From a virus, in the IMG/VR virus record IMGVR_UViG_3300045988_164075: a stretch of DNA of 64,000 nt; one strand, 5' to 3'. Below are positions 39,231-54,116 of this stretch, piece by piece; the stretch's first letter is position 1, and every line of letters begins with the position of its first letter. The position numbers were made by a program, and so were the translations under genes. Under the pieces are notes generated by a model. It ran no database searches. It was given only the letters and a program-made list of their open reading frames with translations, and had not been told where the DNA came from.

Positions 39231-39302
39231 AGTATATTTAAGGTTTCCAATAGCAATCTAAATATTAGTTTGAATTAATATTAAGAAATCTCCTTCTTTT
39301 AA

Positions 39303-39375: not shown

Positions 39376-39398
39376 CAGAATATAAGTTAATTTTAGTT

Positions 39399-39632: not shown

Positions 39633-39639
39633 ATATTTT

Positions 39640-40018: not shown

Positions 40019-40265
40019 CGCTATTCTAAAATTAATTAAATTATTTTCCTTGAATAGAAAAACTGTAATCGGTTAAAGGTTTATAAATCCGACGTTAAAT
40101 CTAAAAACTTTCCGAGCTGAAGAGCTTGGCGAAGGGAAATAATTTTTATAAAGTTACATACAGCAAAATATTATTGGGGACTTTTTGTAACTTACTTCCT
40201 AGGAATTTAAGCTAATTTAGTAGAAGCACTTGCCTGAAAAATTCTACACTAAAATATTATATTAT

Positions 40266-40946: not shown

Positions 40947-40954
40947 TAATTTTT

Positions 40955-41026
40955 GGTGTATTGGGGTAGGGACTATCCTTCTCGACTGTCTATCGAGAGA
41001 CTCCAGTTTGAATCTGGAATACACCG
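40955..41026 (+). tRNA. tRNA-Asp(GTC).
   Basis: GGTGTAT/ATACACC, CTCGA-CTGTCTA-TCGAG, TCCAG-TTTGAAT-CTGGA. Confidence 0.8.
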
Positions 41027-41039
41027 CATTTAAAATTAT

Positions 41040-41186
41040 ATGAAATACATTTTTATTTTGTTAACTTTATTATTTACAAGTTGCAATACATTAAAAATAC
41101 AGGTACAAGTAGGACCTGTTGGCAAACCTTGTAAAACATACATTAATACTTCTAATAAGGTTACTCCAGCAAATTTTCAGCAATAA
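41040..41186 (+). CDS. Small lipoprotein, 48 aa.
   Basis: MKYIFILLTLLFTSCNTLK.. is a signal ending in a lipobox-like Cys. Confidence 0.4.
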   Translation: MKYIFILLTLLFTSCNTLKIQVQVGPVGKPCKTYINTSNKVTPANFQQ

Positions 41187-41239
41187 TCTTTTAAATTATA
41201 TAGCTAATGTAACCTATTTTTAACTAATCAAAGTATATT

Positions 41240-41467
41240 ATGTTACAATTATTTGGACAAATTAATAAAAATGTTATTGATCCTACATATATTTCTAGTA
41301 TCCGTATTTGTGCTAGGAAAAGTCTGTTTACTGATCAACTAACGTTTTATAGTGTAGTTGAATTTTCTAAAGATGGGGAAAAATTTAAAAAGGAATTCGA
41401 CAATTGTAAAAATCTTTCAGATGCTTATGAACAAGTAAGAAAGTATGTTGAAAAGGTATGCAAGTAG
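41240..41467 (+). CDS. Hypothetical protein.
   Basis: 75-aa ORF. Confidence 0.4.
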   Translation: MLQLFGQINKNVIDPTYISSIRICARKSLFTDQLTFYSVVEFSKDGEKFKKEFDNCKNLSDAYEQVRKYVEKVCK

Positions 41468-41976
41468 AACATTTAAGTAATACTAGAAAGTGGCTTCTTG
41501 ATTATCCCGTATTTCATATAGATTTAGAAGACACTCTAACTTTTGTTAAAGATGTAAGTAACAATATTGTTAATAATAATCCTTATACTGATATTATTTT
41601 AGTAGGGACAGGATTATCAGGAGCAATGTTATGTAGTAGTATTGCGACTTATATTTATACTTATCTTGATTTTAGATGGAATATAGGAGTTCAAATATTA
41701 CGCAAACCTGAAGATAATAACAATCATTCAGTAGAAGCTATAGATTGTTATCATTTTCTAGAAAAAATATCTTCAAGGTATCGTCCTATTATTATAGTTA
41801 TCGATGATTTTATTTCATCTGGAGCAACAATAAATAGAATAATATCTGAACTAACAACAAAATACAATATTAAAAAGATAGATTATTTATATATTTCAAA
41901 TAGTTCCATAGATGTTTGTAAAAATGCACTAGGAGAAAATACAAAATATATAAATCATCTTTGTTTATATCGTTAG
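41458..41976 (+). CDS. Type I phosphoribosyltransferase.
   Basis: PRPP-binding motif ..RPIIIVIDDFISSGATINRI.. Confidence 0.6.
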   Translation: MQVEHLSNTRKWLLDYPVFHIDLEDTLTFVKDVSNNIVNNNPYTDIILVGTGLSGAMLCSSIATYIYTYLDFRWNIGVQILRKPEDNNNHSVEAIDCYHFLEKISSRYRPIIIVIDDFISSGATINRIISELTTKYNIKKIDYLYISNSSIDVCKNALGENTKYINHLCLYR

Positions 41977-41999
41977 TAGTTATTTTTAAAATAATAAAA

Positions 42000-42038
42000 G
42001 CGAGTGTTGTTTAATACGACACTCGCTTATTTTTTTTA
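42000..42038 (+). terminator. Rho-independent terminator.
   Basis: GCGAGTGT-N11-ACACTCGC followed by a T8 run. Confidence 0.65.
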
Positions 42039-42055
42039 ATTTAAATTTTTATAAG

Positions 42056-43744
42056 ATGTTTAACTGCAAACTTGATTCTTTATTTGAAAAGACTTCAACA
42101 TCTAATGGATTTGTTAACGCTGCTTTACAAAAATCAGCAGAAACACTAACTCAAAATGGAGCTAAGACATATAGTACTACAGGAGATCCTTTTGTAGATC
42201 AATTTGGGTCTATTAGTAAGTATAGAGAATTACGTGATTTCAGTTTAATTTGTTCAGATTGTGAGAAGCTATGGGCAGTTGATAAACTTCAAACTGTAAA
42301 GTTTATCTTCTTCTTACGTATGATTACACGTAAAATTGATTATATACACGATGGAGAAGTAAACAAAACAGAATTCTCTCAAAAAGGAGCTGAAATGCGT
42401 TATGAGGGAATTATGCGTTTAATTTGGCTTCATATTAAGTCTCCTGAAATATTCTGGAAAAACGCTTATCTTATTCCATTTATAGGCTCTTGGAAAGATA
42501 TATTTCTCATGCTACGATATGACCTTATATACAATGGCTGGGACAAACGTGTACTTGATTGGAACAGGTTCGAAGAATTAATTCATTTTGGTTTATCTAA
42601 AGATTCTACTAGAGAATTAGTTAAGAAGTATTTACCTCAAGTAAAAGCTAGATCTAAATGCGCAAGCTAATTGTATAATTGCAAAGTGGTTAGCTACAGG
42701 TTTATTTGGAAGTACAAAAAATCTTAACTATGAAGATAAATATGATGTCTATCGTCGATATGCTAGATTAAAATCTTCTGGAACAGCTCACGAATGGCAG
42801 CAACTTATTTCTAAAGGTAAGTATGATCTAATTAGATTTGAAACTATACATAGCAAAGCGTTAACAGTACTTGCTAGATCTAAGTTTTTTGATAATCATA
42901 ATCTTCGGGAAAAGTTTACAGAATGGATTACAGCTGATTCAACAGATAATGTAAAATCTACTGAATTTGTTCACGAACTATTTGCTCCTTATCCAAATAC
43001 TACTTTTTTGGACGTAATTTATCAGAAGTTCCTAAGGACCAACAAGCTTTAGTTAATAAGAAATTTTACACACTTGTTAATAAAGCAAAAGATCAAGAAA
43101 TTAAAACAAAATTTATTGTTGTTCGTGATACTTCTAGCTCAATGATTGCACATGCTATAGGAACTAAAGTATCTTCTTACGATATTGGAAAAGCGCTAGC
43201 TTTGTATTTCTCAGAATTTTTAACTGGACCTTTTTCTAACTGTTTTATGGAATTTGCAAATGATTGTAGATTGTGTAAATGGTATGGTAACACTCCCATA
43301 GAAAAGTGGTTTAATGATCATTCTGAAGCGTATGGAAGTACTAATTTCCAGAGTGTTATTGATTTATTTATTAAAATTAAAAAACAGGGAGTTGCTGAAT
43401 CTGATTTTCCTACAGGAATTATATGCATTAGTGACGGAGAGTTAGATCCAGTTAGTTTAAATGCATCTAATATTGAGGCAGCACGCAGGAAACTATTTTG
43501 GGCAGGATTTTCTGAAGAATTTGTGGATAATTTTGTAATAGTTATGTGGAATATTACAAATGATTATTATGATGAACATTCACGTGTTAACTTTGATACT
43601 TATGGGAATGTAAAAAATACTTTCTACTTTGGAGGATATTCTGCAAGTGTATTAACCTTTCTGTTTACAGGAGAATTGAAGACTACTACTGATTTGTATA
43701 AAGCTGCTATGAATCAGGAAATTTTAAATTTAGTTCAAATCTAA
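42056..43744 (+). pseudogene. DUF2828/vWA-like protein in three frames: a +1 shift near 42640-42670 and a -1 shift at 43005.
   Basis: N-terminal piece ..LTQNGAKTYSTTGDPFVDQFG.. (42056..42670), middle piece ..CIIAKWLATGLFGS..HEWQQLISKG.., C-terminal piece (43142..43744) ..ICISDGELDP.. The second switch is on ACT TTT TTG. Confidence 0.55.
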
Positions 43745-43793
43745 ATTATAAAGAAGGAGATTCACTCCTTCTTTATTTTTTAATTTCTTAATT

Positions 43794-43919
43794 ATGCCAA
43801 AACGGTTAAAAGATTACCAAATAGGTAGTGATCAAGTAGAGGAAATTAGAAACAAAAAGAAACCTCGTAAATTTAAAGATAACGAGGACTATAACAAGAA
43901 TAAGAAAAGAAAAAAATGA
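43794..43919 (+). CDS. Small basic protein.
   Basis: MPKRLKDYQIGSDQVEEIRNKKKPRKF.. ends in TGA within ATGA. Confidence 0.3.
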   Translation: MPKRLKDYQIGSDQVEEIRNKKKPRKFKDNEDYNKNKKRKK

Positions 43920-44218
43920 TCAAACAATTATTAAAGTATTGTTTGAATCTCCTATTTCCAAAGAAAAAAGAACTTTTATTAAATGAAATTACTGTAGATC
44001 CATTAAAAAAGATTAAAGACATACAAATATACGATGATGTTTATATTCAAATAGATAACCAAATTTATACCGCTTGAGTTATGCAAAAAAATATCAACTC
44101 AATTATTATAGGTTATACGATTGGAGAAGATTTTAAGGAATATACATTTAACATCAGAGGTATGTGAAATAAAACTCAAATTATTCAGGATAATAAAATG
44201 TTAATTCTTAACAAATAA
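43916..44218 (+). CDS. Hypothetical protein with two in-frame TGA inside the otherwise standard-code block.
   Basis: MIKQLLKYCLNLLFPKKKE...QIYTA W VMQKN...IRGM W NKTQIIQDNKMLILNK*. Confidence 0.45.
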
Positions 44219-44577
44219 TGTTTATTGTTATCATTTTAATAGTAATGGAAATAATTGCGGTTTATACTGCAATTATATCTATAATTGTTTTTGCGAAAGA
44301 AGATTCTGGAATTCGACTTGATAGAGCAATTTTTGGAATTGTTTTGTCACTAGTGCCATTTGCTGGTATATTGTTGGTCATGATATTTCAAGTATGGATT
44401 TGCGATAAATATAATTATCATACAGACTATATAAGACTTTATTATCCAGGATATACATTACTTGAAGCAAAAACAACAAACAATGTTGTTCGCAGAATTA
44501 TTAACTGGTATATAAATGCAGTTCCAGTTATCCATATTCAGAAGTTCAAAGTTAATAAAAATTCAAATCAACAATAG
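44218..44577 (+). CDS. Membrane protein.
   Basis: 119-aa ORF with two TM helices. Confidence 0.45.
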   Translation: MFIVIILIVMEIIAVYTAIISIIVFAKEDSGIRLDRAIFGIVLSLVPFAGILLVMIFQVWICDKYNYHTDYIRLYYPGYTLLEAKTTNNVVRRIINWYINAVPVIHIQKFKVNKNSNQQ

Positions 44578-44640
44578 TCTAAGTTTAATTATAGTCTCTC
44601 TTTTTGTTAGTAAACCTAGATTATTGTTAACATTAAAAAT

Positions 44641-45102
44641 ATGACTTTGAAGTTTGTCCAAGATACATCTATTCTAGATGCAGAACAAATGTATCGTATA
44701 AATATTGTAAATTGTCGAAATATTTTTGATAAAAAAGTGCGAAATAAATTTCCAATAGTTTATCAAGAATATCGTAAATTATTTTTGAATGCAGACTTAG
44801 AATTATGTGATTCTTATATGGGTAAAATCCATCCTATTTTTGTTGGAGGGGATAAAGGGTGGGTTATTAATGTTTTTGCAGAACAATTTCCATATTTAAT
44901 TAAATTCTCAGCTTTTGAACAATGTTTAAATAAAGTTAAGAATTATATTCTTAAAGAGTCTCCAGTTTTATTTCACGAACTTGCGATTGAAGTAAATCCA
45001 ATGCATAGAGAATTTTATAAACACATTTTTAAACGTATATTTGAAGATACTGATTTTGAAATATACATATACGATAAGTTTTTGGATGATTTTTCGAATT
45101 AG
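44641..45102 (+). CDS. Hypothetical protein.
   Basis: 153-aa ORF. Confidence 0.45.
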   Translation: MTLKFVQDTSILDAEQMYRINIVNCRNIFDKKVRNKFPIVYQEYRKLFLNADLELCDSYMGKIHPIFVGGDKGWVINVFAEQFPYLIKFSAFEQCLNKVKNYILKESPVLFHELAIEVNPMHREFYKHIFKRIFEDTDFEIYIYDKFLDDFSN

Positions 45103-45109
45103 ATATAAT

Positions 45110-45126
45110 ATATCTATGTAAGTCTT
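45110..45126 (-). repeat. Inverted 17-nt copy of the 26-kb repeat (AAGACTTACATAGATAT).
   Basis: ATATCTATGTAAGTCTT is the exact reverse complement of 26072-26088. Confidence 0.85.
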
Positions 45127-45198
45127 TTAATTTAAAAATATTTTTCGTATTTTTGTAGTTGTCTAGTAGATTAAAAATTCAATAATAAATCTAATTAA

Positions 45199-45390
45199 TT
45201 GTTTATGAAGAAAGTTTTTATTGTAGCTATCATGTTCTTTAGTCTAATGATAGCTTGTAATACTACTGGTGTAAAAAATACAACTGTAGACTCAGTAGAA
45301 GTAGTAACAGATACAACTAAAACTGATTCTATTATTGTAGATTCAGTTGATAGTGTAGCTATTGACTCTGTTGTAACAGATAGTATTTAA
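45199..45390 (+). CDS. Putative lipoprotein with a D/S/V-rich repeat.
   Basis: ..VAIMFFSLMIACNTTG.. followed by repeated DSV motifs. Confidence 0.4.
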   Translation: MFMKKVFIVAIMFFSLMIACNTTGVKNTTVDSVEVVTDTTKTDSIIVDSVDSVAIDSVVTDSI

Positions 45391-45485
45391 TTTTTATTTG
45401 CCTGTACCCTTGAATATGATTAGATTCATAGAAACTCGGATAAGTTCAGCAGGTCTTTTATAGATAAAAGGGTAGGAAAGAATAA

Positions 45486-45574
45486 GGAGAGTAAACCTTG
45501 ATGGTGATAGGAACAACCTGCTAAGTTGTTTTGTACTTAGAAATAAGTATATAGTTCGATTCTATTGCTCTCCG
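45486..45574 (+). tRNA. tRNA-Ser(GCT), class II.
   Basis: GGAGAGT/GCTCTCC, ACAAC-CTGCTAA-GTTGT, long variable arm, ATAG-TTCGATT-CTAT. Confidence 0.7.
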
Positions 45575-45579
45575 CAAAA

Positions 45580-45662
45580 GCTCAGGTGGAGGAATTAGGC
45601 AGACTCGCTACACTTAGGATGTAGTTCTTTATGAATTGTGGGTTCGAGTCCCACCCTGAGTA
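45580..45662 (+). tRNA. tRNA-Leu(TAG), class II.
   Basis: GCTCAGG/CCTGAGT, CTACA-CTTAGGA-TGTAG, long variable arm, GTGGG-TTCGAGT-CCCAC. Confidence 0.8.
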
Positions 45663-45678
45663 CTAAAATAATTAAATT

Positions 45679-46128
45679 ATGAATAATATTGTTTTCTTAG
45701 ATATCGATGGGGTATTGAATTATACAGAATGGTATATTTGTCCTCGTAATGAGTTAAAATCTGACTTAGATCCATTTTGTATAGAACGTATAAAAGTATT
45801 ATGTAGAATAACTAATTCAAAAATAGTTATTTCTAGCGATTGGAGATATTCTACTGGTTATAAAAAATTATTGAAGGATAATGATTTTATAGAATTGATT
45901 ATAGATGAAACTCCAGAACATATGTTTGATGTATCTCAAGAAGATAAATCTAGAGGTTCAGAGATTCAACATTGGTGGAATAATTTTGGAAAATTATATA
46001 AAGATTATATAATTATTGACGATAGAACTGATTTTTTGGAACATCAGAAAAGTAAGTTAATTCAAGTTAATCCACAAATTGGATTTACTGATTTAAATTT
46101 ATTAGATGCGGTATATTTATTAAACTAG
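45679..46128 (+). CDS. HAD-superfamily phosphatase-like protein.
   Basis: Motif I MNNIVFLDIDGVLNY, later ..ISSDWR.. and ..IIIDDR.. Confidence 0.55.
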   Translation: MNNIVFLDIDGVLNYTEWYICPRNELKSDLDPFCIERIKVLCRITNSKIVISSDWRYSTGYKKLLKDNDFIELIIDETPEHMFDVSQEDKSRGSEIQHWWNNFGKLYKDYIIIDDRTDFLEHQKSKLIQVNPQIGFTDLNLLDAVYLLN

Positions 46129-46208
46129 CTTTTTGTAAATGTAATTAAATATTATAGATAAAGTCTAATAACATTTAATTATTAATATAATAAAATAAGT
46201 ATAAAAAC

Positions 46209-46475
46209 ATGACTCAACCTGAATATTCTACAATACTATGTTCTTGTAATTTTTCAGAACACTTATTAATTCTTCATTTTAATAAAGACGATAAAGAAAT
46301 ATATTTGGAATATCATTTATGTTCTCTTCCATTTTGGAAACGAGTAATAATAGGTATTAAATATATATTTGGCTATCGTAGTAAATACGGAGAATACGGA
46401 GAATTCATTATCTCAAAAGATAACTATAAACAATTTAAAGAAATTCTTACATTTTTTGAAGATGAAACTAAATAA
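46209..46475 (+). CDS. Hypothetical protein.
   Basis: 88-aa ORF. Confidence 0.4.
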   Translation: MTQPEYSTILCSCNFSEHLLILHFNKDDKEIYLEYHLCSLPFWKRVIIGIKYIFGYRSKYGEYGEFIISKDNYKQFKEILTFFEDETK

Positions 46476-46665
46476 AGCTGAAATTATTTCTGAAGCTAAT
46501 GCTAGGCCGCAGCGTATTAGATATGGTCAAGCTATATTTAATGTTGCATATAAGATGTATCCAAATGCGGTAAATAAATTAAGAGGAACAGATCTTGACT
46601 GTTTTTATCAAGATGAAAAAGTTGACAAATTTCTTAATGCTTTAGAAAATTTATTACTTAAGTAA
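46462..46665 (+). CDS. Hypothetical protein.
   Basis: ORF 46369..46665 trimmed to ATG 46462 (MKLNKAEIIS..). Confidence 0.4.
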   Translation: MKLNKAEIISEANARPQRIRYGQAIFNVAYKMYPNAVNKLRGTDLDCFYQDEKVDKFLNALENLLLK

Positions 46666-46922
46666 TGCTTTTTGGAACTATTGCTTGTATTATAATTACT
46701 TTAGCCTACTTACCACAATGTATTTTTATTTATAAAACAAAAGATACTTGCGGTTTATCATTTAATACATTTTTAGCTATTTGGATTGGAATGTTGTTCT
46801 GGATAGTACACTCTATTATTATAAATGATTTACCTTTATTAATTAGTAGCTTAGCTAGCTTTACTCAAAATAGTTATATATTGTATAATATTATTAAAAA
46901 TAGATCTAATGGACTCATATAA
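46665..46922 (+). CDS. SemiSWEET / PQ-loop-like 3-TM protein.
   Basis: 85 aa with three helices and ..LAYLPQCIFIYKTKDT.., a PQ motif in TM1. Confidence 0.5.
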   Translation: MLFGTIACIIITLAYLPQCIFIYKTKDTCGLSFNTFLAIWIGMLFWIVHSIIINDLPLLISSLASFTQNSYILYNIIKNRSNGLI

Positions 46923-47145
46923 TGCGTTAATGACTTCTTTATATAATGCTAGATGGAATGACATGTGTGAACCTAAAACATTGGATGATATATTTGAAGC
47001 AATTAGGAAAGCTGCAAATAAAGGAAAGTTTGGAATTATCTATTTTGGAGATTATCATAAACCTGAATTTGTACCTGAATTAACTCAGCTTGGATTTAGA
47101 ATTATATACAATGATATAAATGATATATATTATATATTATGGTAA
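46909..47145 (+). CDS. Hypothetical protein, paralogue of 47139..47378.
   Basis: ..AANKGKFGIIYFGDY..VPELTQLGFRIIY..YYILW versus ..ATKGKFGIFIKNSN..IPELEADSYLV..YIGIYW. Confidence 0.45.
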   Translation: MDSYNALMTSLYNARWNDMCEPKTLDDIFEAIRKAANKGKFGIIYFGDYHKPEFVPELTQLGFRIIYNDINDIYYILW

Positions 47146-47378
47146 ATGCAAATATTATGAGAAAAGTTGCTGCCGATAACTCATTAAATAATACTAAAAT
47201 AGTAGTTATTGATAGTATAGGTGAAATAGAAGATATTATTATCTCTGAAGCAACAAAAGGAAAGTTTGGAATTTTTATTAAAAATTCAAATTTAGATTTC
47301 CAACAAATAATCCCTGAATTAGAAGCTGACTCTTACTTAGTAGATAATTACGGAGATTATATAGGAATATATTGGTAA
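47139..47378 (+). CDS. Hypothetical protein (paralogue).
   Basis: 79-aa ORF. Confidence 0.45.
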   Translation: MVNANIMRKVAADNSLNNTKIVVIDSIGEIEDIIISEATKGKFGIFIKNSNLDFQQIIPELEADSYLVDNYGDYIGIYW

Positions 47379-47393: not shown

Positions 47394-47682
47394 GCGCTGG
47401 TAGTTTACGTTGGCAGAACGCTGGTCTTTAAAATGGAGCTTTATAGTAGAAATACTATAAATGTACTTGATGATAACGTTGAATCCTTAACAGATAGTGC
47501 TGATGGTAACGACGTCGGAATAGAATAATTTCTAGCCGCGAGAGAGCAGATAATCAAGCATCTAAGTCAATTTTGATATGATGAAGACGTGCTCCAGACT
47601 ACAAACAAGATGTACTTTTTGGTAGTGAAAACTATAGTAGTAAGCAAAACCAGAAGAAGGGGATCGTCACCTCTACAGCGCG
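47394..47682 (+). tRNA. tRNA-Trp-like opal suppressor, tRNA(UCA), interrupted by a group I intron. Exons are 47394..47428 and 47645..47682.
   Basis: 5' half GCGCTGG-TA-GTTT-ACGTTGGCA-GAAC-G-CTGGT-CTT. 3' half CAAA-ACCAG-AAGA-AGGGG-ATCGTCA-CCTCT-ACAGCGC-G. The spliced loop is CT-TCA-AA. The anticodon arm and the G discriminator resemble E. coli tRNA-Trp (CCGGU-CUCCAAA-ACCGG, G73, recalled from memory). There is one G7-A66 mismatch. Confidence 0.65.
47429..47644 (+). mobile_element. Group I (IC3-like) intron in the anticodon loop between positions 34 and 35, 216 nt, no ORF.
   Basis: Starts after U and ends in G. GAAA-capped hairpin TATAGTA-GAAA-TACTATA (47442-47459). Long-range GGAGC (47435)/GCTCC (47591) pairing. 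GATGAAGACGTGCTCCAGACTA (47580-47601) resembles the J8/7-P7 region of tRNA group I introns and the GATGAAAA..GCTGAACTA cores of the other introns here. Confidence 0.55.
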
Positions 47683-47709: not shown

Positions 47710-47949
47710 ATGTTGTGAATTATATATTTTTTAACAATTATTATTACGTTTATTATAATATTATCAGTAGATTTATATGTTAATTGTAAAAATTATACTA
47801 AATTTGATTTATTTACTGAAATAACTTTTAGTATCATACCTATAATTAACTTAGTTATGATAATATATTATTTAGTTTATCTTAAACGAAATAATATTAA
47901 AATTAAAGAAGTAATAACACTTTTCTTTAAAACTTTATTGAATAAATAA
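47710..47949 (+). CDS. Membrane protein, first recoded gene after the suppressor tRNA.
   Basis: ML W IIYFLTIIITFIIILSVDLY.., with TGA as codon 3. Confidence 0.45.
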
Positions 47950-47950
47950 T

Positions 47951-48166
47951 ATGAATTTACCTATCGGAATATTTGAAGAAGATATCAGACCTATTCAGAA
48001 TCAGTATCCTAACATTGATTTAAAAGAAGCAATTGTTTTATTTCTTAGACGTGATAATTGAACATATGGTAATATACAAAAAAAGTTAGGTAATCCATCA
48101 AAAAAGTGAATTAGGGAAGTATTATTAAAATATGAACCAAGTTTAGTTAATATTCAGTCTTACTAA
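47951..48166 (+). CDS. Hypothetical protein, two in-frame TGA.
   Basis: MNLPIGIFEEDIRPIQ..RRDN W TYGNIQKKLGNPSKK W IREVLLKY.. Confidence 0.45.
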
Positions 48167-48636
48167 TGAATAATTTCCTTAAAATAGGTAAGCAAAAAGA
48201 GAAAGAATTTGCTCAAATTTTAATCGATAATTTTGGAGGAACTATTACATATCCTTCTAAAAAAGTAGATATGTTTGATCACATTGATTTGTACTGAAAT
48301 AATATAGGATTTGATGTAAAAGGAGTTAAAGGCGAAACAAGATCTGGACCATTAAATGATAGATTTCATTGAATTGAATATCAAAATAGAAATGGAGAAA
48401 AAGGATGACTAAATGGGAAAGCAAAATATTTTGCTTTTGAAACATTTAGCAGTTGAATTATAGTTTCTAAAAATCGAATTAAATCTCTTTTATATGATAA
48501 AGTAGATTATTCTAAAATAGTTAGATTTAATCCCAAAGTATATCAAGTATATATGCGTCCTACAGCTAAAGACCTAATTATCAAAGTTCCTACGTCTGAT
48601 TTAATGTTATTCGCTACTAAAATTATTTCAAAATAA
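48166..48636 (+). CDS. PD-(D/E)xK nuclease-like protein, four in-frame TGA.
   Basis: ..VDMFDHIDLY W NNIGFDVKGVKG.. matches a D...(D/E)xK pattern. TAATG overlaps at both ends. Confidence 0.45.
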
Positions 48637-48821
48637 TGCAACTTTATTCTGTTACTTATTGTGCAAAAAATACTGATTCTGAAACTAATTCAGAATCAGT
48701 AATAATGAAAGTTTACGATAATATTAAACATCCAACAGAGGAATATTTTTTAAAACAACTCTTTGGAAAATTAGATTATATGTATGAAATAATTCAGTTT
48801 CAAAAACTTAAAACCGAATAA
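48636..48821 (+). CDS. Hypothetical protein.
   Basis: 61-aa ORF. Confidence 0.35.
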   Translation: MQLYSVTYCAKNTDSETNSESVIMKVYDNIKHPTEEYFLKQLFGKLDYMYEIIQFQKLKTE

Positions 48822-48822
48822 T

Positions 48823-49008
48823 ATGTTGTATTTAATTCTTAATCACAAAACTCAAATTGCGAAGTTAAAAAGTAGTTTTCAACCTCAAAGTATTGTTTAT
48901 ATTGATAATTTTAAAATGGATACTGATGATCTAGGCACTACTATTTTTAACGATAATATAAGCATTTGGTGGCCAAACGATGGAATAGTCATACATCAAT
49001 ATAAATAA
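48823..49008 (+). CDS. Hypothetical protein.
   Basis: 61-aa ORF. Confidence 0.35.
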   Translation: MLYLILNHKTQIAKLKSSFQPQSIVYIDNFKMDTDDLGTTIFNDNISIWWPNDGIVIHQYK

Positions 49009-49016
49009 AATCAGAT

Positions 49017-49088
49017 GTTCCTGTAATTCAAGGGATAGAATATCTGCCTTCTAAGCAGAATATCTTAGTTCGAGTCTAAGCAGGAACA
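49017..49088 (+). tRNA. tRNA-Arg(TCT).
   Basis: GTTCCTG/CAGGAAC, TCTGC-CTTCTAA-GCAGA, CTTAG-TTCGAGT-CTAAG. Confidence 0.85.
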
Positions 49089-49107
49089 CAATTCTAATTA
49101 TTATTTT

Positions 49108-49299
49108 ATGGCAAAATATATTGTAACTTATTGTCCTGAGTGTCAACGTAATACTACTCATAAAATTTATGTAGAAGATGGGTATGGTGTTTCAGGAATA
49201 TCGAGAATATTTTCAAACTTAATTAGTTTAGGTTTATGTAATATTGGCAATATTACTTATTGTACATGCTTAAATTGTGGGAATACTAAAGAAATTTAA
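49108..49299 (+). CDS. Zn-ribbon protein.
   Basis: CPECQ...CLNCG. Confidence 0.45.
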   Translation: MAKYIVTYCPECQRNTTHKIYVEDGYGVSGISRIFSNLISLGLCNIGNITYCTCLNCGNTKEI

Positions 49300-49301
49300 T
49301 T

Positions 49302-50489
49302 ATGCGAAATAAAAATTATTGATTCTAATAGACATTGAGATAATTTAATTCAAAGAGAGTTATACGAAACAGCTGAAAAAGAAATTTTAGTTACTAGTTT
49401 AACCTCAGATACTCAATTAGGAAATAATATGCGACAAGTAGATGCTATTGTTACAATTGGGAACGAAAAGGGTTTTTATAAAAAATTATTATCGTTCGGA
49501 GAGAATATTCAGAAACGTTGAATACATTTTACAGAATGTCCTTCTAAGAAAACGATCCGAGAAAATATTATAAAAATTTTTAAAAATAATATTCTAAACT
49601 ATTCTTCGAACGAAATTTTTTCTATTATTACTCCAACTTATAATACAACTACAGAAGAAATCACTAGACTTTATCAATCATTAGTAAAACAAACTTATAC
49701 TGATTGAGATTGATGAGTTCTAGACGATCCTACTAATGATACGGTTATTAAAACATTAGAATCACTAAATGATTCTAGAATTTATATATTTAAAAATATT
49801 TCACATAAAGGAAATATTGGTTTTAATAAAGGGTATTAGGTTCTATGTGTTCTGGATCATATATAGTTGAAGTAGATCACGATGATGAATTAACTAGTGA
49901 TTGTTTACAAGTATTACATGATGCATTTAAAGCATATCCTGATGCTGGATTTGCTTATTCTCATACTTGTGAAATGAATCAAGACGGTCCTGCTGATTAT
50001 GGAGATGGATGAGGATTAATGCATGGTACAACAAGAATAGAGGTACTGGATGGCAAAAAAACTTTAATTGCAGTTACTCCTCATATTAATTGTGAAACAC
50101 TTCGTATGGGATGGACTTGTCCAAATCATGTTCGAGCTTGAAAAAGAGATACTTATAATAAATTGAGAGGACATAATCGAGATTTATCAATTGCTGATGA
50201 TTATGAACTAACAATTAGAACTTTTTTATCAACTCGTATGATAAGAATTGACAAAGCGTTATATATACAACATCATGAAACCATAACAGAATCCTATAGG
50301 AGAATTAAAGAAATAGCAAGAACTTTATCTTTAGCATTATCCACTTGAGATACTGCAATTCACAATCGTATCCCTGAAATTAATAACGCAACTGATTTGG
50401 TTTGAGACATTAAGAATAACTGTAGTTTACTAATGGATACTATTCGATACTCTGGCCTTAAACCTTTAAGTTATAATTATAAACCTTAA
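49302..50489 (+). pseudogene. GT2-family glycosyltransferase with TGA codons and two frame disruptions.
   Basis: ..FSIITPTYNTTTEEITRLYQSLVKQTYTD W D W W VLDDPTNDT..GNIGFNKG, then a -1 switch near 49838 into ..GSYIVEVDHDDEL... ATG 49302 is in a different frame from the N-terminal region, with the switch at the run AAATAAAAATT. Confidence 0.5.
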
Positions 50490-50500
50490 ATTATTAAAAG

Positions 50501-51121
50501 ATGCAATGCACAGGTTGTACAAGTATTCTTTTTCAGAATACTGAAGAAGTTTCTTTTGAAACATTTGCTAAAAACTGTTTACGAAGTTTCATACAAGTTG
50601 AAAAATGTAATGTTTTTGAAGAAGAATTTTTAGAAACTATTCAAAGTGATGATTATAATCTTGTTACATTTGATGAAAATTATAAGAAGTTAATTGAAAT
50701 TATTTCTGAAGATTTTACTGTTGAGAGTTATCGTGCTGATTTACGTAAAGCCATTAAACATTATAAGGAACAAATAGCTAAACTTGAGCGGTTCGAAGAG
50801 ATTGTTCTTAAAATGACAATAAAAGTTACTAATTGGAATCCTAATTCTGAAGATTTAATTGCTTTTAAACAATTTATGCTCGATCAATTGGAATTAACTT
50901 CTCAAAAGAGGGTTATCGATTACTACAGAAAGGAACTTTTAGAACTACAATCAAAACTAAAAATAGCAGATAAAGAATATAAGTCTGCTAGAGAAGAACA
51001 AATTACTCAACTATTAAATAGTTTAGAAAATAGTATACTTCAACTTAAACAATTACGAGCACAGAGATCAAAGAATAACCTGTGGTTAAAAGAAGTTTAT
51101 AAAGCAATTAAGCAAAAATAA
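50501..51121 (+). CDS. Hypothetical coiled-coil protein.
   Basis: 206-aa ORF. Confidence 0.45.
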   Translation: MQCTGCTSILFQNTEEVSFETFAKNCLRSFIQVEKCNVFEEEFLETIQSDDYNLVTFDENYKKLIEIISEDFTVESYRADLRKAIKHYKEQIAKLERFEEIVLKMTIKVTNWNPNSEDLIAFKQFMLDQLELTSQKRVIDYYRKELLELQSKLKIADKEYKSAREEQITQLLNSLENSILQLKQLRAQRSKNNLWLKEVYKAIKQK

Positions 51122-51144
51122 ACTTTAACTTAAATTTTCTACTT

Positions 51145-51450
51145 ATGTCTAGAAGTTATAAACGACCGATTATAAAAGATGCAGGAGGATATGGTACATA
51201 CTATCGTACTATTAAACGTAGAGTCCGTCAATATCTTCGAGAATCTTTAAAACGTTTAGATGATCCTACTTTTAATTTTGTAATTCCTCAGGAGAAAGAA
51301 ATAGTTAATGATTATGATGTATGTGATTGGGTATTTGATTATGAACATAGACCTTTACGTTACCCAAGATACCATAATCGATACAATTATTCAGCAGAGG
51401 ATGCTAAAAGAGATAGAGAAGAAAACATTAAGAAATATAGTAGAAAATAG
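51145..51450 (+). CDS. Hypothetical basic protein.
   Basis: 101-aa ORF. Confidence 0.45.
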   Translation: MSRSYKRPIIKDAGGYGTYYRTIKRRVRQYLRESLKRLDDPTFNFVIPQEKEIVNDYDVCDWVFDYEHRPLRYPRYHNRYNYSAEDAKRDREENIKKYSRK

Positions 51451-51458
51451 AAAACAAA

Positions 51459-51529
51459 GGTATAGTGACCGAGTGGTTAGGTTAAGGTCTGCAAAACCTT
51501 ATACATAAGTTCGAATCTTATCTATACCT
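51459..51529 (+). tRNA. tRNA-Cys(GCA).
   Basis: GGTATAG/CTATACC, AAGGT-CTGCAAA-ACCTT, ATAAG-TTCGAAT-CTTAT. Confidence 0.8.
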
Positions 51530-51545
51530 CTAAAATATTTATTTT

Positions 51546-51701
51546 ATGGATAAATTTACATTAGATTATATTAAAACTTCTAGAAAATTTTCTAGAGAAG
51601 AGGAAATTAGATTATATGGTAAGCCTCTTCTAAAACATAAGATATATAAATTAAAGAATAAATATAAACGAAATAAAAAAGTCTATGTTAACGACGATTA
51701 A
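51546..51701 (+). CDS. Small basic protein.
   Basis: MDKFTLDYIKTSRKFSREEEIRLYGKPLL.. Confidence 0.35.
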   Translation: MDKFTLDYIKTSRKFSREEEIRLYGKPLLKHKIYKLKNKYKRNKKVYVNDD

Positions 51702-51834
51702 TAATTATTGAAATACTATAAGAACTATTTTTAGATTGTATTTTAAAATTACACAATTAACTTTTTTAGAATTAAAAGAAGTAATTGAAGTAATATCTAA
51801 AAGTGAGGAAAATATTAAAGACTTTCATAAATTA

Positions 51835-52005
51835 ATGTTAGTATTATTAGTAATTCAACTAATATTTACTTTTGGAATTTATCCATTAATTGTATTATAC
51901 GGGTGAAATTTAATTATAGTAGGTTTATTTGGAGTTCCAATTATAGGGTACTTATGAGCCTTATTAATTTCTTTTTTGATAAATATTATATTACATAGAT
52001 TATAA
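51835..52005 (+). CDS. Small membrane protein, two in-frame TGA.
   Basis: MLVLLVIQLIFTFGIYPLIVLYG W NLIIVGLFGVPIIGYL W ALLISFL.. The start is uncertain. Confidence 0.35.
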
Positions 52006-52022
52006 ATTTTAAAGACTAAGTT

Positions 52023-52358
52023 ATGAAAAAATCTAGATTTTATCACACGGCTCCCAGAATGAAAGTAGAAGCTTTCGTAGATTTATCAAAAGATAAAATA
52101 AATTTTGGTAAAATTATTAAAAGTTATCCAAGATATACTATTTGTGGATCGTTAGATTATGATACAAACTTACTTTCTTTTGGAGTAGCTTGTTGTTCAG
52201 GAAAAGATGTTTATAACAAGAAAATTGGGCGCAGAATATCTGAGGGACGTGCTCTTAAAACTCCTATTGTAACAGTATCAGTTACTAAAGAAAACATTTC
52301 TGAAGTATTTATTACGACCGCTAAACAAATTGAAAAAGAACTTTATCAAAATGACTAA
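52023..52358 (+). CDS. Hypothetical protein.
   Basis: 111-aa ORF. Confidence 0.45.
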   Translation: MKKSRFYHTAPRMKVEAFVDLSKDKINFGKIIKSYPRYTICGSLDYDTNLLSFGVACCSGKDVYNKKIGRRISEGRALKTPIVTVSVTKENISEVFITTAKQIEKELYQND

Positions 52359-52518
52359 CGATATTGTTATAAAAGGAAAATTTAGTACTTCTAAAGATCT
52401 AAATGATTTTATTGAAAAACTTCAAGAACTTTGTACAAAAGAAGAAATTATATTTAGTGGAAGAATCGATGTATTTGAATTTACTGAATATGAAGAAATA
52501 ATAGATACAGTAGGATAA
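52351..52518 (+). CDS. Hypothetical protein.
   Basis: ORF 52330..52518 trimmed to ATG 52351. Confidence 0.35.
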   Translation: MTNDIVIKGKFSTSKDLNDFIEKLQELCTKEEIIFSGRIDVFEFTEYEEIIDTVG

Positions 52519-52524
52519 TCTTAA

Positions 52525-52914
52525 ATGAAAAAGTTAATAGTAAAAATCCCAATTTTTAATAGTATTGTAACTATTTTACAATCAGATAATATCCAAGAAG
52601 TAGATAATTATATATGTAGTGTACATAATTGTCCTAGTGATTTAACAAATTTTTATACTGATGATATTGATGGAAAAGTTTTTATAACTCCAGATAATGT
52701 ATGTTATGTATGGATACAAAGTGATTCTGGGGTATTAACTTTAATTCATGAGATTGGGCATGCTGTGTATCATTTAATGCGGTGTTATGGTCTTGAAGGA
52801 GAAGAAATATTTTTGTATTTACAAGACTATATTCTTAAACAAGTAATATGTACGAAGCCTGAACTGATGGAAGCTTTAAGCCATCTATCAATTGTGGAGG
52901 ATACTCAACAATAA
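52525..52914 (+). CDS. HExxH-motif protein (putative metallopeptidase).
   Basis: ..LTLIHEIGHAVYHL.. Confidence 0.4.
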   Translation: MKKLIVKIPIFNSIVTILQSDNIQEVDNYICSVHNCPSDLTNFYTDDIDGKVFITPDNVCYVWIQSDSGVLTLIHEIGHAVYHLMRCYGLEGEEIFLYLQDYILKQVICTKPELMEALSHLSIVEDTQQ

Positions 52915-53291
52915 TTACTCAAAATCAGCAAATAATAAAAAAAATCTATCAAGGATTTAAAAATACTACAAATAATAGGATGGAACTTTATGGAGTATTA
53001 GAAACATTAAAATATTTTGATACTCCTACACAAATTACTATTTATTCTGATTCACAATATGTTGTTGGAAGTATTAATAATGGACATTTAGAAAAGTGAA
53101 TTTCTTCAAACAATTTCTCTAAGAAAAATTTAGATTTATGGCGACAAATATATGAATATTTAAAGATTCACGATACCAGATTTATTTGAGTAAAAGGGCA
53201 TAATGAAAATTCGTTTAACGAAATGGCAGATTTATATGCTTGCCATGCAGCAGAGTGTTTAAACTTACAAGAAGACAAGATAAATGAATAA
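52848..53291 (+). CDS. rnhA: Ribonuclease HI, four in-frame TGA.
   Basis: MYEA W TDGS..GGYS..TTNNRMELYGVLETL..IYSDSQYVVGSI..LEK W ISS..NLDLWRQI..FI W VKGH..NEMADLYA. The TGA at 53187-53189 falls on the conserved Trp of the WVKGH motif. The 5' end overlaps ORF 52525..52914 by 67 nt in another frame. Confidence 0.85.
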
Positions 53292-53655
53292 TATATTAGT
53301 AGTTAAAAAAGTAGGTAATCATTGGTATCCTTGTATTAAACATAATTGGACTGGAGATATTGTAATTCCTCATAAGATTGAACTTATCTTTAATATCATT
53401 GCTATGGGAGAAGAGGTTTTACATCTAGAGTTTGAAGAATTACATTCTATTGTTGAAGGACTCAATATTATATGGTTTAATGATGCTGATATTACTCAGT
53501 ATATGATTACTGATGATGAAGATGAATTTGATTTTGATATGCATTTTACTATTAATGATAAAGAATTTTATATTTCGTCTTATCTGTATACATTATTAGA
53601 AGATCAATTTCATTTTAATTTCCACGATACAATTTACAGACTATATATATGGTAA
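53284..53655 (+). CDS. Hypothetical acidic protein.
   Basis: 123-aa ORF. Confidence 0.45.
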   Translation: MNNILVVKKVGNHWYPCIKHNWTGDIVIPHKIELIFNIIAMGEEVLHLEFEELHSIVEGLNIIWFNDADITQYMITDDEDEFDFDMHFTINDKEFYISSYLYTLLEDQFHFNFHDTIYRLYIW

Positions 53656-53900
53656 TAGAAGAAGCTGATTTCAAGATGGAGTCTGATAATCGAGGTAGAT
53701 TTGATTTGTCTTTTCGTAATAATACAAATACAAATTGGAAACTTTACGGTTATAGTATGACTCTAAAAAACTGTATCCAGGCAATTTCACACGAACGATT
53801 AAGTCAAAAACTAGATGTAACTGATTTGAAAACTTTTATTAAAGAATTAAAATCAATGCATAATGAAGTAGTTAATTTATTATCTATAATTAATGAATAA
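53649..53900 (+). CDS. Hypothetical protein.
   Basis: 83-aa ORF. Confidence 0.4.
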   Translation: MVIEEADFKMESDNRGRFDLSFRNNTNTNWKLYGYSMTLKNCIQAISHERLSQKLDVTDLKTFIKELKSMHNEVVNLLSIINE

Positions 53901-54096
53901 TTATCGTTTAGAAATAGTTGAAGTTACCAAAAATACTTGTTGTTTAATTTATTCAAAATACTTTGAATCAGATCAAAATATTAAAGAAGATACTTATTGA
54001 AGAAACAATAAGTGTATAACTATTTCAAAATATGATCCTACATGCGACTTAAAACAAACACGCAAACGCAAGACCAAATTACAGACGCAAGAGTAG
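53893..54096 (+). CDS. Hypothetical protein, one in-frame TGA.
   Basis: MNNYRLEIVEVTKNTCCLIYSKYFESDQNIKEDTY W RNNKC.. Confidence 0.4.
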
Positions 54097-54116
54097 CTAA
54101 AACTGAAGTAAATGTA

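Follow-up and report, generated by a model that had tools for sequence, protein, structure and literature searches.

The window analysed here is a stretch of viral DNA of 64,000 nucleotides, and a tRNA gene in two halves lies on its + strand at positions 47394-47682. The 5' exon (47394..47428) consists of the acceptor strand GCGCTGG, TA, the D-arm GTTT/ACGTTGGCA/GAAC, G26, the anticodon-stem strand CTGGT and C32 U33 U34 (CTT). The 3' exon (47645..47682) consists of C35 A36 A37 A38 (CAAA), the anticodon-stem strand ACCAG, a 4-nt variable loop AAGA, the T-arm AGGGG/ATCGTCA/CCTCT, the acceptor strand ACAGCGC and the discriminator G73 (G47682), and it does not encode CCA. The two halves are complementary in the acceptor and anticodon stems, the CTGGT/ACCAG stem bridging the 216 nt that lie between them, and joining them yields a cloverleaf tRNA of 73 nt whose anticodon loop is CU-UCA-AA and whose discriminator is G73. 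The 5' splice site has U47428 as its -1 nucleotide, and the predicted spliced junction reads ...GCUGGUCUU^CAAAACCAGAAG... (...GGUCUU^CAAAACC...). The original prediction had placed the two halves at these positions and held that a single tRNA(UCA) appears only after removal of the 216 nt, which is what we found. Three irregularities pointed out at that time are also present in the sequence: an acceptor-stem mismatch G7-A66, the T-loop ATCGTCA and a P1 helix of 3 bp. The T-loop (A54 U55 C56 G57 U58 C59 A60) departs from the canonical T54 Psi55 C56 R57 A58 in that positions 54 and 58 are swapped (A...U for U...A); these could still pair, and U55, C56 and G53-C61 are retained.

When run on the unspliced region with anticodon-loop introns of up to 400 nt allowed, a search proposed with the prediction, ARAGORN called no tRNA. 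On the spliced sequence the program called a tRNA with anticodon tca, the 7-nt loop CUUCAAA, U33 and a purine at position 37. This call persisted up to 105% of the default thresholds and was lost at 110%, a setting at which 10 of the 18 other tRNAs of the window remain. As a chance control, every T that could end the exon was combined with every G that could end the intron around six covariance-model hits; of these 10,121 splice pairs, only 47428/47644 produced a tRNA with a 7-nt loop. The other hits of the model in the window (R1, described below) yielded no tRNA when spliced in silico.

Judged by sequence comparison, the insert (47429..47644, + strand, 216 nt) is a group I intron of the classical tRNA-Leu(UAA) type. 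It contains no ORF and is assigned to a tRNA-Leu(UAA)/IC3-like family by alignment, covariation, covariance model R1 and its minimum free energy (MFE) fold. As predicted, it starts after a U (U47428) and ends in a G, the omega-G at 47644, which is the only G that gives a 7-nt loop together with U(-1). The following elements all lie on the + strand. From the sequence and the P1 columns of the family, the internal guide sequence GAG (47436..47438) forms P1 with exon nucleotides C47426, U47427 and U47428 through the pairs U47428-G47436, U47427-A47437 and C47426-G47438; the U-G wobble at the splice site occupies a column that is U-G in 31 of the 33 family members. The P2 hairpin (47440..47461) has 9 bp and a GAAA tetraloop L2 at 47449-47452; it appears in the consensus structure and the MFE fold, and all 10 of its pairs covary across the family. 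The P3 5' strand CUUGAU (47466..47471) pairs with AUCAAG (47553..47558), and all six pairs covary in the family and are formed in the R1 alignment, in agreement with the consensus structure. The P4-P5 domain (47476..47515) is made of P4 (47476-47481/47510-47515) and P5 (47485-47506), supported by consensus, covariation, R1 and MFE, and an internal loop of P5 resembles a tetraloop receptor. P6/P6a (47516..47538; consensus, covariation and MFE) holds a polymorphic site, 47526, in its terminal loop.

P7, a pseudoknot helix identified by the covariation test, joins a 5' strand G-(A bulge)-GAGCA (47542..47548) to the 3' strand UGCUCC (47590..47595). G47542 and 47544-47548 pair with 47590-47595; the helix is 100% paired in the family and four of its six pairs covary, the window intron having GAGCA/UGCUC whereas most family members have GACUA/UAGUC. 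The features of the guanosine site are present, namely G47542-C47595, the bulged A47543 and G47544-C47594, and the two G-C columns (pairs 159/238 and 161/237) are invariant or nearly so. By analogy with established group I structures, the guanosine-binding site is expected at G47544-C47594, next to the bulged A47543. P8 (CAUC...GAUG, 47559..47583) is supported by consensus, covariation and R1; its internal loop UCUAAG/UAUGA resembles the 11-nt GAAA-tetraloop receptor and, from this motif, may act as one. J8/7 (AAGACG, 47584..47589) aligns with the conserved AAGGUA/AAGAUA of the family. The P9 domain (47598..47641), defined by consensus and covariation, comprises P9 (ACUAC/GUAGU), P9a (47606-47621) and P9b (47622-47635), the last with a second GAAA loop at 47627-47630 (L9). 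The segment GATGAAG..AGACTA had been proposed as the J8/7-P7 region. This helix assignment is incorrect in detail. GAUGAAG corresponds to the P8 3' strand and the start of J8/7, and AGACTA (47597-47602) is not P7: it runs into the P9 5' strand ACUAC (47598-47602), and we rejected it since no J8/7 would remain. Comparison with an intron of Kolpuevirus and with the family identified GAGCA/UGCUC as the true P7. The proposed folding of the insert on its own recovered the helices of the family in the MFE structure, with z = -3.05. In that fold the internal guide GGAGC is paired with the P7 3' strand GCUCC, an alternative pairing that would be a misfold.

The family used for these comparisons consists of 33 other, distinct phage tRNA introns that were found through an exact 24-nt match in P9/P9b, so the columns of this motif are uninformative. 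The window intron aligns with all of them over its full length. A blind RNAalifold run recovered P2, P3, P4, P5, P6, P8 and P9, of which the window row forms 43 of 46 pairs; it also forms all P7 and P1 pairs. When P1 and the P7 pseudoknot were added to the consensus, 95.3% of the cells were paired, as against 76% in shuffled and 33-42% in slid alignments, and two-sided changes occurred at 39 of the 55 pairs of the consensus P1-P9. R1, a covariance model of the core from P3 to P7' of 31 other introns, was trained without the window, its two closest relatives and the 24-nt fishing motif. Its top match in the 64-kb window was 47463-47597, with 52.7 bits and E ~3e-8. The Rfam model RF00028 (Intron_gpI), whose use had also been recommended, gave no match on the window intron at the gathering score or at E <= 10 on 501 nt, and it likewise gave none on the sister introns L051 and L059 or on the Kolpuevirus DnaB intron. 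Above its gathering score of 50, however, it found the family members L089, L066, L019, L041 and L012 (56.9-71.1 bits) and a relative on a bacterial chromosome (54.8 bits). The RF00028 miss is thus uninformative here, as the model overlooks L051 and L059 yet scores other members of the same family; its seed holds no bacterial sequence (Williams 2020). The assignment to group I made in the original prediction is borne out by the covariation, by the leave-clade-out covariance model and by the Rfam matches to sister introns.

The 24-nt motif (47621-47644) is present in at least 120 viral contigs, and as a probe it led to at least 112 viral contigs with intron-split tRNAs of the same architecture. 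At least 70 ordinary tRNA-Leu(UAA) genes of phages have an intron of this family at the same place in the loop, as do phage tRNAs for Met, Asn, Arg, Ile and Ser. UCA tRNAs split by an intron were also encountered in other phage contigs. At those loci the ratio of ORF lengths with TGA as sense to those under the standard code was tried as an indicator of TGA recoding and discarded, as control loci gave the same ratios and the measure was therefore uninformative.

The intron shares with the classical tRNA-Leu(UAA) intron the insertion after U34 (CUU/...g/xAAA), U(-1) and omega-G, a length of about 200 nt, the lack of an ORF, the P1-P9 layout and an exon anticodon stem that bridges the intron, and it can be aligned with tRNA-Leu introns of phages for which Rfam reports an Intron_gpI match. 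The insertion between 34 and 35 had been recognized as the classical site, and CUU/...g/CAAA indeed matches CUU/...g/AAAA (Williams 2020). Unlike the classical intron, that of the window resides in a UCA suppressor of a phage genome, has a P1 of just three pairs and a P7 altered by compensatory substitutions, and has diverged below detection by RF00028. A core motif, GUGUAGAGACUAGACGG, is common to the phage family and at least 120 bacterial contigs, mostly of Betaproteobacteria; no Azoarcus record was among the listed bacterial contigs that match this Azoarcus-like motif. The Azoarcus tRNA-Ile(CAU) and betaproteobacterial IC3 introns are presumably similar in being small IC3-type ribozymes with GAAA loops on P2 and P9 and receptor-like loops in P8 and P5. 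They differ in their insertion site within the loop and in their bacterial chromosomal location, and the window copy has diverged at the core motif (GCGAGAGAGCAGAUAAUC). Positions 47576-47644 of the window, the 3' domain that extends from the P8 3' strand through omega-G, show 82.6% identity to the corresponding domain of the Kolpuevirus DnaB intron. However, the protein-gene introns of crAss-like phages (for example the DnaB intron of Kolpuevirus 'frurule' and cr111_1, with its GIY-YIG endonuclease) interrupt ORFs and often carry homing endonuclease genes, whereas the window intron lies in a tRNA and has no ORF.

The spliced tRNA appears Trp-like. As predicted, it has a G discriminator. Among annotated tRNAs it is matched best by the tRNA-Trp of Corynebacterium phage P1201, with 85% identity over nucleotides 7-47, which cover the D-arm and the anticodon arm (E = 4e-3). 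Another phage, L006, has an uninterrupted Trp-like tRNA(UCA) with exactly the same anticodon arm. The acceptor stem begins with G1-C72, unlike the A1-U72 of E. coli tRNA-Trp, and a blastn search of the spliced tRNA against E. coli genomes matched nothing. We infer that the tRNA is charged with Trp.

The gene sits at a switch in the coding of the + strand. Upstream, about 22 kb of ORFs together with 17 tRNA genes (24726..47378, +) are essentially free of in-frame TGA in an ORF scan and use TGG for Trp. Downstream (47710..63406, +), about half of the ORFs contain in-frame TGA, including helicase, DnaB and RNase H. The flanking ORFs are those originally described: the TGA-free one ends at 47378, and the first with TGA (47710-47949) reads ATG TTG TGA, with TGA as codon 3. 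The inferred boundary between code blocks thus agrees with the gene map. The structural and packaging genes (1772..19151, - strand) also have many in-frame TGA codons, with 15 in the tail fibre and 9 in TerL, and others in the portal and head fibre genes; the endolysin has 6. Total ORF length nearly doubles if TGA is read as sense. TGA codons of TerL, a protein 29% identical to Crassvirales TerL, were aligned with two standard-code relatives. One has W, Y, Y, W, T, L, Y opposite them and the second W, F, W, F, T, which makes 9 of the 12 residues W, Y or F. The window is dense in introns, with one also in TerL and probably one in the portal gene. Contig OLWB01000021 (162,190 bp) has an identical tRNA-plus-intron locus and belongs to zeta_13 of Yutin et al.; sister contigs measure 160-165 kb, and a megablast of 20 kb against phage records found no close GenBank relative. 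The phage is a TGA-to-Trp recoded, Zeta-group crAss-like gut phage of the ~162-kb zeta_13 lineage.

None of the 18-19 other tRNAs of the 64-kb window has the anticodon UCA or CCA, so that the search for an uninterrupted tRNA(UCA) came out as the original prediction required, and the split gene is the sole UGA-reading tRNA within the window. No further tRNA was found in the ~9 kb read downstream of it. Outside the window, the claim that there is no other suppressor relies on a published list, which gives 9 tRNAs whereas ARAGORN finds 18 in the window alone. In the portions of Yutin et al. 2021 that concern this lineage, OLWB01000021 is entered as 'TGA|w, zeta_13' with no Sup tRNA, the complete genomes of zeta_13 have no Sup or Trp tRNA, and the TGA|w Zeta rows consulted lack Sup while nearly all TAG|q genomes have it. 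Clear TGA-to-Trp recoding with an undetected suppressor tRNA is described both there and in the 2025 Zeta paper, with host suppressors or 'extremely divergent' tRNAs offered as explanations. An intron in the anticodon loop hides a gene from tRNAscan-SE and ARAGORN, and the split probably explains the absence of the suppressor from the published surveys of the lineage. Uninterrupted Sup-CTA and Sup-TCA tRNAs are known from crAss-like, Lak, Agate and other phages (Ivanova 2014, Yutin 2021, Borges 2021/22). Like them, the window tRNA decodes a stop codon that has been reassigned and occurs chiefly in later genes, and it adjoins a tRNA array; unlike them, its anticodon is non-contiguous and its product would need RNA self-splicing.

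The same gene was found in 19 independent contigs from different samples, and the intron is present in all 19. No intron-less allele was detected among them, either with a 5'-exon probe in viral contigs or with a 3'-exon probe in metagenome contigs, and in 15 of 15 metagenome contigs with the 3' exon the intron lies directly 5' of it. Across the 19 contigs the intron varies at 5 of 216 sites, all within hairpin loops, whereas the flanking ORFs vary at 12.2% and 4.7% of their sites, which points to constraint on the intron sequence. The 5' exon is invariant, although 4 of the contigs were retrieved with a search pattern that already prescribed 47412-47428. In L266, a contig of low coverage, 33 nt are deleted, and with them the P6 3' strand and the P7 5' strand. 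Polymorphism was seen in the TerL intron of this phage.

Taken together, we estimate a probability of about 0.85 that 47394-47682 is an opal-suppressor tRNA gene split at 34/35 by an ORF-less 216-nt group I intron. The precursor would be transcribed with, or shortly after, the TGA-free early genes and tRNAs. The intron would fold into P1-P9 while the exon strands CUGGU and ACCAG pair across it. A free guanosine bound in P7 would then attack after U47428, at the U-G wobble with G47436, after which omega-G47644 would take the same pocket and exon ligation would create the loop CU-UCA-AA. Maturation, charging and UGA reading would be possible for the spliced tRNA only, so that every TGA-containing gene, for replication, packaging, virion or lysis, would need the ribozyme reaction. 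The intron itself is most likely a selfish or neutral element. It could have reached the suppressor from a tRNA whose loop is almost the same (CUU|AAAA in tRNA-Leu, CUU|CAAA here) and would stay splicing-competent because the tRNA is essential. This is the default reading, given the 70 or more ordinary phage tRNA-Leu genes in which the family occurs.

An alternative put forward in the original prediction as a timing or host-dependence switch, which we consider rather unlikely, yet the best placed of those weighed, is that the ribozyme gates the switch of code, the rate or conditionality of splicing (guanosine, Mg2+, temperature, a phage or host chaperone) setting when, or in which host, the TGA genes are translated. 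The position of the gene exactly at the transition from TGA-free to TGA-containing genes would fit such a role, as would the retention of the intron in 19/19 contigs while that of TerL is polymorphic, its lower variability than that of the flanking ORFs and the occurrence of intron-split UCA tRNAs in other phages. A precedent exists in the theta ribozymes tied to suppressor-tRNA processing in recoded gut phages, as outlined in PMC10879173. These HDV-like ribozymes are similarly coupled to tRNA maturation in code-switching phages, but they are self-cleaving and flank tRNAs, whereas the window intron lies inside the anticodon loop and creates the anticodon. However, the same family is found in tRNA-Leu(UAA), Met, Asn, Arg, Ile and Ser genes where no code is at stake, and tRNA essentiality alone accounts for the conservation. 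In vitro, small group I introns of tRNAs complete splicing within minutes, a brief span relative to an infection cycle. Neither a regulatory element nor a protein partner was identified, and some Zeta phages, e.g. Lera, have an uninterrupted Sup-TCA (PMC12386605). If gating were true, replication, virion and lysis genes would be translatable only upon splicing, and most of the TGA|w Zeta lineages described as 'suppressor-less' would be expected to have an intron-split suppressor. In some of these lineages the tRNA has an additional arm, a variable arm with the CCA-containing loop CUCCAAA, which may serve in TrpRS recruitment.

It is improbable that the gene is decaying, with a splicing-dead intron and a tRNA pseudogene, UGA being read by a host tRNA, by another tRNA of the phage encoded outside the window or by near-cognate tRNA-Trp(CCA). 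The missing RF00028 match, the short P1, the atypical T-loop, the acceptor mismatch and the L266 deletion across the P6 3' and P7 5' strands could be taken in this sense, and ~80 kb of the ~162-kb genome lie beyond the sequence read. Yet the core helices, U(-1), omega-G, the bulged A and the G-C pair of P7 are all intact, and the polymorphisms spare every stem while the neighbouring ORFs are 2 to 5 times more variable. Moreover, a single essential gene has up to 15 TGA codons, and Yutin et al., in the tabulated tRNAs of the lineage, give no Sup or Trp tRNA for its complete genomes.

Still less probable is another splice site. The letters CTTT... and ...AAGCAAA formally permit 7-nt loops one nucleotide earlier on both sides (CUGCAAA, anticodon GCA, Cys) or one later (CUUUAAA, anticodon UUA, an ochre suppressor). 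In those cases, however, the intron would end in A or C instead of G; only 47428/47644 combines U(-1) and omega-G with a 7-nt loop, and the U-G wobble column of the family is aligned to U47428-G47436. In addition, an ordinary tRNA-Cys(GCA) is already present at 51459, and TAA is the stop codon of the phage. A chance arrangement of unrelated tRNA fragments (e.g. an attachment-site remnant) around an unrelated insert, favoured by nothing more than the modest ARAGORN score, is effectively refuted by the complementarity of the halves, the full group I core of the insert (E ~3e-8), the repetition of the architecture at no fewer than 112 other loci and the presence of the gene in 19 contigs from different samples.

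The intron-split suppressor gives a concrete answer to a published discrepancy, TGA-to-Trp recoding without a detectable suppressor, and a search for split tRNAs is warranted in the annotation of recoded phages, in code prediction and in host inference. A 2014 review stated that every known group I intron of phages lies in a protein gene despite the many tRNA genes of phages; this general statement is altered by the at least 112 contigs with intron-split tRNAs. In the phage studied here, a single ribozyme reaction would underlie the translation of all recoded genes, which makes an RNA-level checkpoint of the code switch directly testable.

The two halves of the suppressor tRNA gene lie where the original prediction had placed them. 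The 5' half (47394-47428) reads acceptor GCGCTGG, TA, D-arm GTTT-ACGTTGGCA-GAAC, G, CTGGT and CTT, and the 3' half (47645-47682) reads CAAA, ACCAG, AAGA, T-arm AGGGG-ATCGTCA-CCTCT, ACAGCGC and G. The joined halves were called by ARAGORN as a 74-base tRNA with anticodon tca and the loop CUUCAAA; no tRNA was called in the unspliced region 47300-47800, even with long anticodon-loop introns permitted. The original observation is upheld, UCA arising only upon joining. The call was kept at 105% of the ARAGORN thresholds and lost at 110%, a level at which just 10 of 18 window tRNAs were still called, so by this measure the spliced product is typical of the tRNAs in this phage. Its body retains U8, A14, G18-G19, A21, G26, U33, A37, G53-C61, U55 and C56; the usual U54 and A58 are exchanged for A54 and U58, which could still pair with each other, G7 and A66 are mismatched and CCA is not encoded. 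Judged by sequence, the body is Trp-like in its G73, in its anticodon arm, which an uninterrupted Trp-like tRNA(UCA) on a 197-kb phage contig shares without a difference, and in its best annotated match, the tRNA-Trp of Corynebacterium phage P1201; we infer that the suppressor is spliced and charged. Neither UCA nor CCA was found among the anticodons of the 19 ordinary tRNAs detected in the window by ARAGORN and Rfam, and hence no uninterrupted tRNA(UCA). Two plus-strand tRNAs were unusual: one at 37346-37416 (Rfam tRNA model, 45.4 bits; '???' in ARAGORN) has a 6-nt anticodon loop, AUUUUA, and is possibly Lys(UUU)-like, and a tRNA-Glu(UUC) at 38491-38562 (Rfam, 44.3 bits) has anticodon-stem mismatches and was called by ARAGORN at 80% of thresholds and not at default.

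The 216-nt insert (47429-47644) folds as a group I intron. P1 consists of three base pairs (C47426, U47427 and U47428 with G47438, A47437 and G47436) and is followed by P2 (47440-47461, with a GAAA loop), P3 (47466-47471/47553-47558), P4 (47476-47481/47510-47515), P5 (47485-47506), P6/P6a (47516-47538), P7 (G47542, bulged A47543 and 47544-47548, with 47590-47595), P8 (47559-47583, whose internal loop UCUAAG/UAUGA is like an 11-nt tetraloop receptor), J8/7 (47584-47589), a P9 domain (47598-47641) with a second GAAA loop, and omega-G at 47644. Of the segment originally read as J8/7-P7, GAUGAAG does run from the P8 3' strand into J8/7, but AGACUA leads into P9 and not P7. The insertion point, CUU/...g/CAAA here and CUU/...g/AAAA in the classical tRNA-Leu intron, is at the same loop position, as had been proposed. 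The intron presumably also resembles the Azoarcus ribozyme. The guide region GGAGC (47435-47439) is complementary to the P7 3' strand GCUCC (47591-47595), and the two are paired in the MFE fold, a pairing that may compete in the precursor; a 4-bp version of this complementarity also occurs in L051, one of the two closest sister introns.

The assignment to group I, already made in the original prediction, is upheld by covariation, by a covariance model trained without the closest relatives and by Rfam matches to sister introns. The intron was aligned, together with the adjoining 8 nt of the 5' exon and 6 nt of the 3' exon, with 33 distinct family members that lack an ORF; the P9 columns of this alignment carry no information because the family was gathered through an exact motif in P9. 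Unguided, RNAalifold predicted P2, P3, P4, P5, P6/P6a, P8, P9, P9a and P9b, with compensatory changes in 33 of 46 pairs; the window row formed 43 of the 46, the other three being accounted for by a one-column gap shift in P3. When P1 and the pseudoknotted P7 were included, 95.3% of cells were paired as against 76.3% when shuffled and 33-42% with slid partners, both sides changed in 39 of 55 pairs, P7 was 100% paired with four of its six pairs covarying, and the 5' splice-site pair was U-G in 31 of 33 sequences. The model R1 was trained on just the core, P3 through the P7 3' strand, of 31 family members, leaving out the window, L051, L059 (the other closest relative) and the P9 fishing motif. 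Its top match on both strands of the 64-kb window was 47463-47597, at full model length (52.7 bits, E ~3e-8, E-values being rough owing to short calibration). Folded by itself, the intron gave the same helices at minimum free energy (z = -3.05). Rfam Intron_gpI (RF00028) gave no match to the insert at its gathering score or at E <= 10, nor did it match L051 or L059 of the same divergent subclade, so that its miss is uninformative here; it did exceed its gathering score of 50 for five phage members of the alignment (56.9-71.1 bits) and for one bacterial chromosomal relative (54.8 bits). The RF00028 seed holds no bacterial sequence (Williams, 2020 preprint). By blastn against GenBank phages, 47576-47644 showed 82.6% identity to Kolpuevirus 'frurule', in the 3' end of an insert, a group I intron typical of phages, that has a GIY-YIG endonuclease and splits the DnaB helicase gene.

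ORFs of at least 150 aa sum to 7,889 aa under the standard code, to 14,005 aa with TGA read as sense and to 8,954 aa with TAG read as sense. On the plus strand, the small ORFs and tRNA array at 24.7-47.4 kb have essentially no in-frame TGA and use TGG for Trp, and from 47710 onward about half of the ORFs contain TGA, the first one past the suppressor gene opening with ATG TTG TGA, so the gene does sit at a boundary between code blocks. This downstream block encodes a helicase, a peptidase, a phosphoesterase and an endonuclease (PHROG matches), to which Pfam hits on the equivalent genes of sister contigs added RNase H, ferritin and DnaB. The TGA-rich minus-strand block (1.8-19 kb) matched PHROG head fibre, tail fibre (15 TGA), portal and large terminase (TerL; 9 TGA), and the endolysin has 6 TGA. 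In alignments with two standard-code relatives, the TGA codons of TerL fall opposite W, Y, Y, W, T, L, Y in one and W, F, W, F, T in the other. TerL is itself split by an ORF-less group I intron of 267 nt (13767-14033, minus strand) that satisfies U(-1)/omega-G and contains an R1 match (13854-13992, 20.9 bits); intron-less 738-aa alleles in sister contigs encode an identical protein and match both exons flush. R1 also matched 10553-10684 (minus strand, 32.4 bits), in a gap between portal ORFs matching N-terminal and later parts (10705-11895, 9649-10524 and 8541-9590), and 54578-54696 (plus strand, 41.6 bits), between ferritin-like and metallophosphoesterase ORFs; in-silico splicing revealed no tRNA halves around either. 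The plus-strand DnaB gene (59671-62284) is apparently split by an insert with an endonuclease gene (60702-61586, PHROG 'endonuclease'), and a continuous 372-aa DnaB_C gene occupies this position in the sister contig L268, apparently another mobile-intron polymorphism.

At least 120 IMG/VR viral contigs contain the final 24 nt of this insert in the suppressor gene (GGTAGTGAAAACTATAGTRGTAAG), and at least 112 loci (L012-L130) gave tRNAs when spliced in silico by the U(-1)/omega-G rule: Leu(UAA) at 73, UCA at 14, Met(CAU) at eight, Asn(GUU) at five, Arg(UCU) and Ile(UAU) at three each, and six others (three Phe-AAA and one each of Ser-UGA, Lys-UUU and 'Pyl'-CUA). The Phe(AAA) and CUA calls, with inferred introns of 456-1015 nt, are probably artefacts of the splice-choice rule. 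About 20 loci have introns of 600-750 nt, presumably with endonuclease ORFs. Group I introns are common in phage tRNA genes, mainly Leu(UAA) and also Met, Asn, Arg, Ile, Ser and Lys, which contradicts the statement in a 2014 review that all phage introns then known were in protein genes. Other phages have intron-split tRNA(UCA) genes that are shaped differently, with G73 and a long variable arm; these are on IMG/VR contigs of 100-144 kb (L014, L051/L122, L052/L081/L088/L103/L111, L053 and L129). Their variable-arm stems differ (GGGG/CCCC, AGGG/CCCU, CGGU/ACCG, GGGU/ACCC), and the 7-nt loop is CUCCAAA (CUCCAAC in L051/L122), CUCCAAA repeating exactly the anticodon loop of tRNA-Trp, CU-CCA-AA. 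This loop may be a decoy for TrpRS recognition while the spliced UCA reads UGA; we found no description of such an arm in the literature.

The best-supported reading is that ordinary group I self-splicing would be obligatory for making the opal suppressor of this phage. The anticodon stem pairs across the intron, as is required in the Anabaena pre-tRNA intron according to the title of Zaug et al. 1993 (listed in PMC3984707). A selfish or neutral origin, in which the intron would have moved in from a tRNA-Leu-like context, is favoured because dozens of ordinary phage tRNAs have members of this intron family at this very site. Splicing could possibly serve as a timing switch, as originally suggested: the gene lies at the code boundary and the intron is fixed in this lineage, being present in all 19 contigs with the suppressor locus, from different samples, while the TerL intron is polymorphic by comparison; yet no result here requires it. 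That the split tRNA is a pseudogene is contradicted by its conservation among these contigs, where variable sites amount to 12.2% in upstream and 4.7% in downstream ORFs but to 5/216 in the intron, all in terminal loops (L5: 47494, 47495, 47497; L6a: 47526; L9a: 47613), and to 0/73 in the exons, of which just 29 positions are informative since 44 were fixed by the search patterns. The 1x-coverage metagenome contig L266 (ERZ779916 NODE-2459) has a 33-nt intron deletion, equivalent to 47519-47551, that takes out the 3' strand of P6 together with the 5' strand of P7, and may be an assembly error or an inactive copy. A different junction yielding a different tRNA is contradicted as well: among 10,121 constructs, pairing every exon-terminal T with every intron-terminal G around six covariance-model hits, only 47428/47644 gave a tRNA with a 7-nt loop. 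That sole solution, the R1 core match and the two-sided pair changes contradict a chance association of unrelated halves and insert.

The suppressor 3' exon was found on 15 metagenome contigs, several of 160-165 kb, one of them OLWB01000021. In the rows examined of Supplementary Data 1 of Yutin et al. 2021 (PMC7886860), this is a 162,190-bp circular MAG labelled 'TGA|w', zeta and zeta_13, with 9 tRNAs and an empty 'anticodon of Sup tRNA' field; a Sup entry is lacking for all eight zeta_13 genomes and for the other TGA|w Zeta rows (zeta_11, 12, 14, 15), whereas Sup-CTA is listed for nearly all TAG|q genomes. For several TGA|w genomes a 'Trp' tRNA is given there, which could be the CCA-looped variable arm miscalled. 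For about 80 kb of the genome outside the window, our claim of a sole suppressor relies on this clearly conservative tRNA list. Yutin et al. 2021 noted the mismatch between code and suppressor and proposed suppressors supplied by the host or tRNAs too divergent to detect. Separately, recoded phages were already known to carry suppressor tRNAs, tRNA anticodon loops to house group I introns and Zeta crAss-like genomes to be intron-rich; our literature search found no description of a suppressor tRNA split by an intron, nor of a phage tRNA gene containing a group I intron. The intron-split tRNA(UCA) probably accounts for the 'missing' opal suppressor of this whole recoded lineage, and it exposes a blind spot in tRNA annotation.
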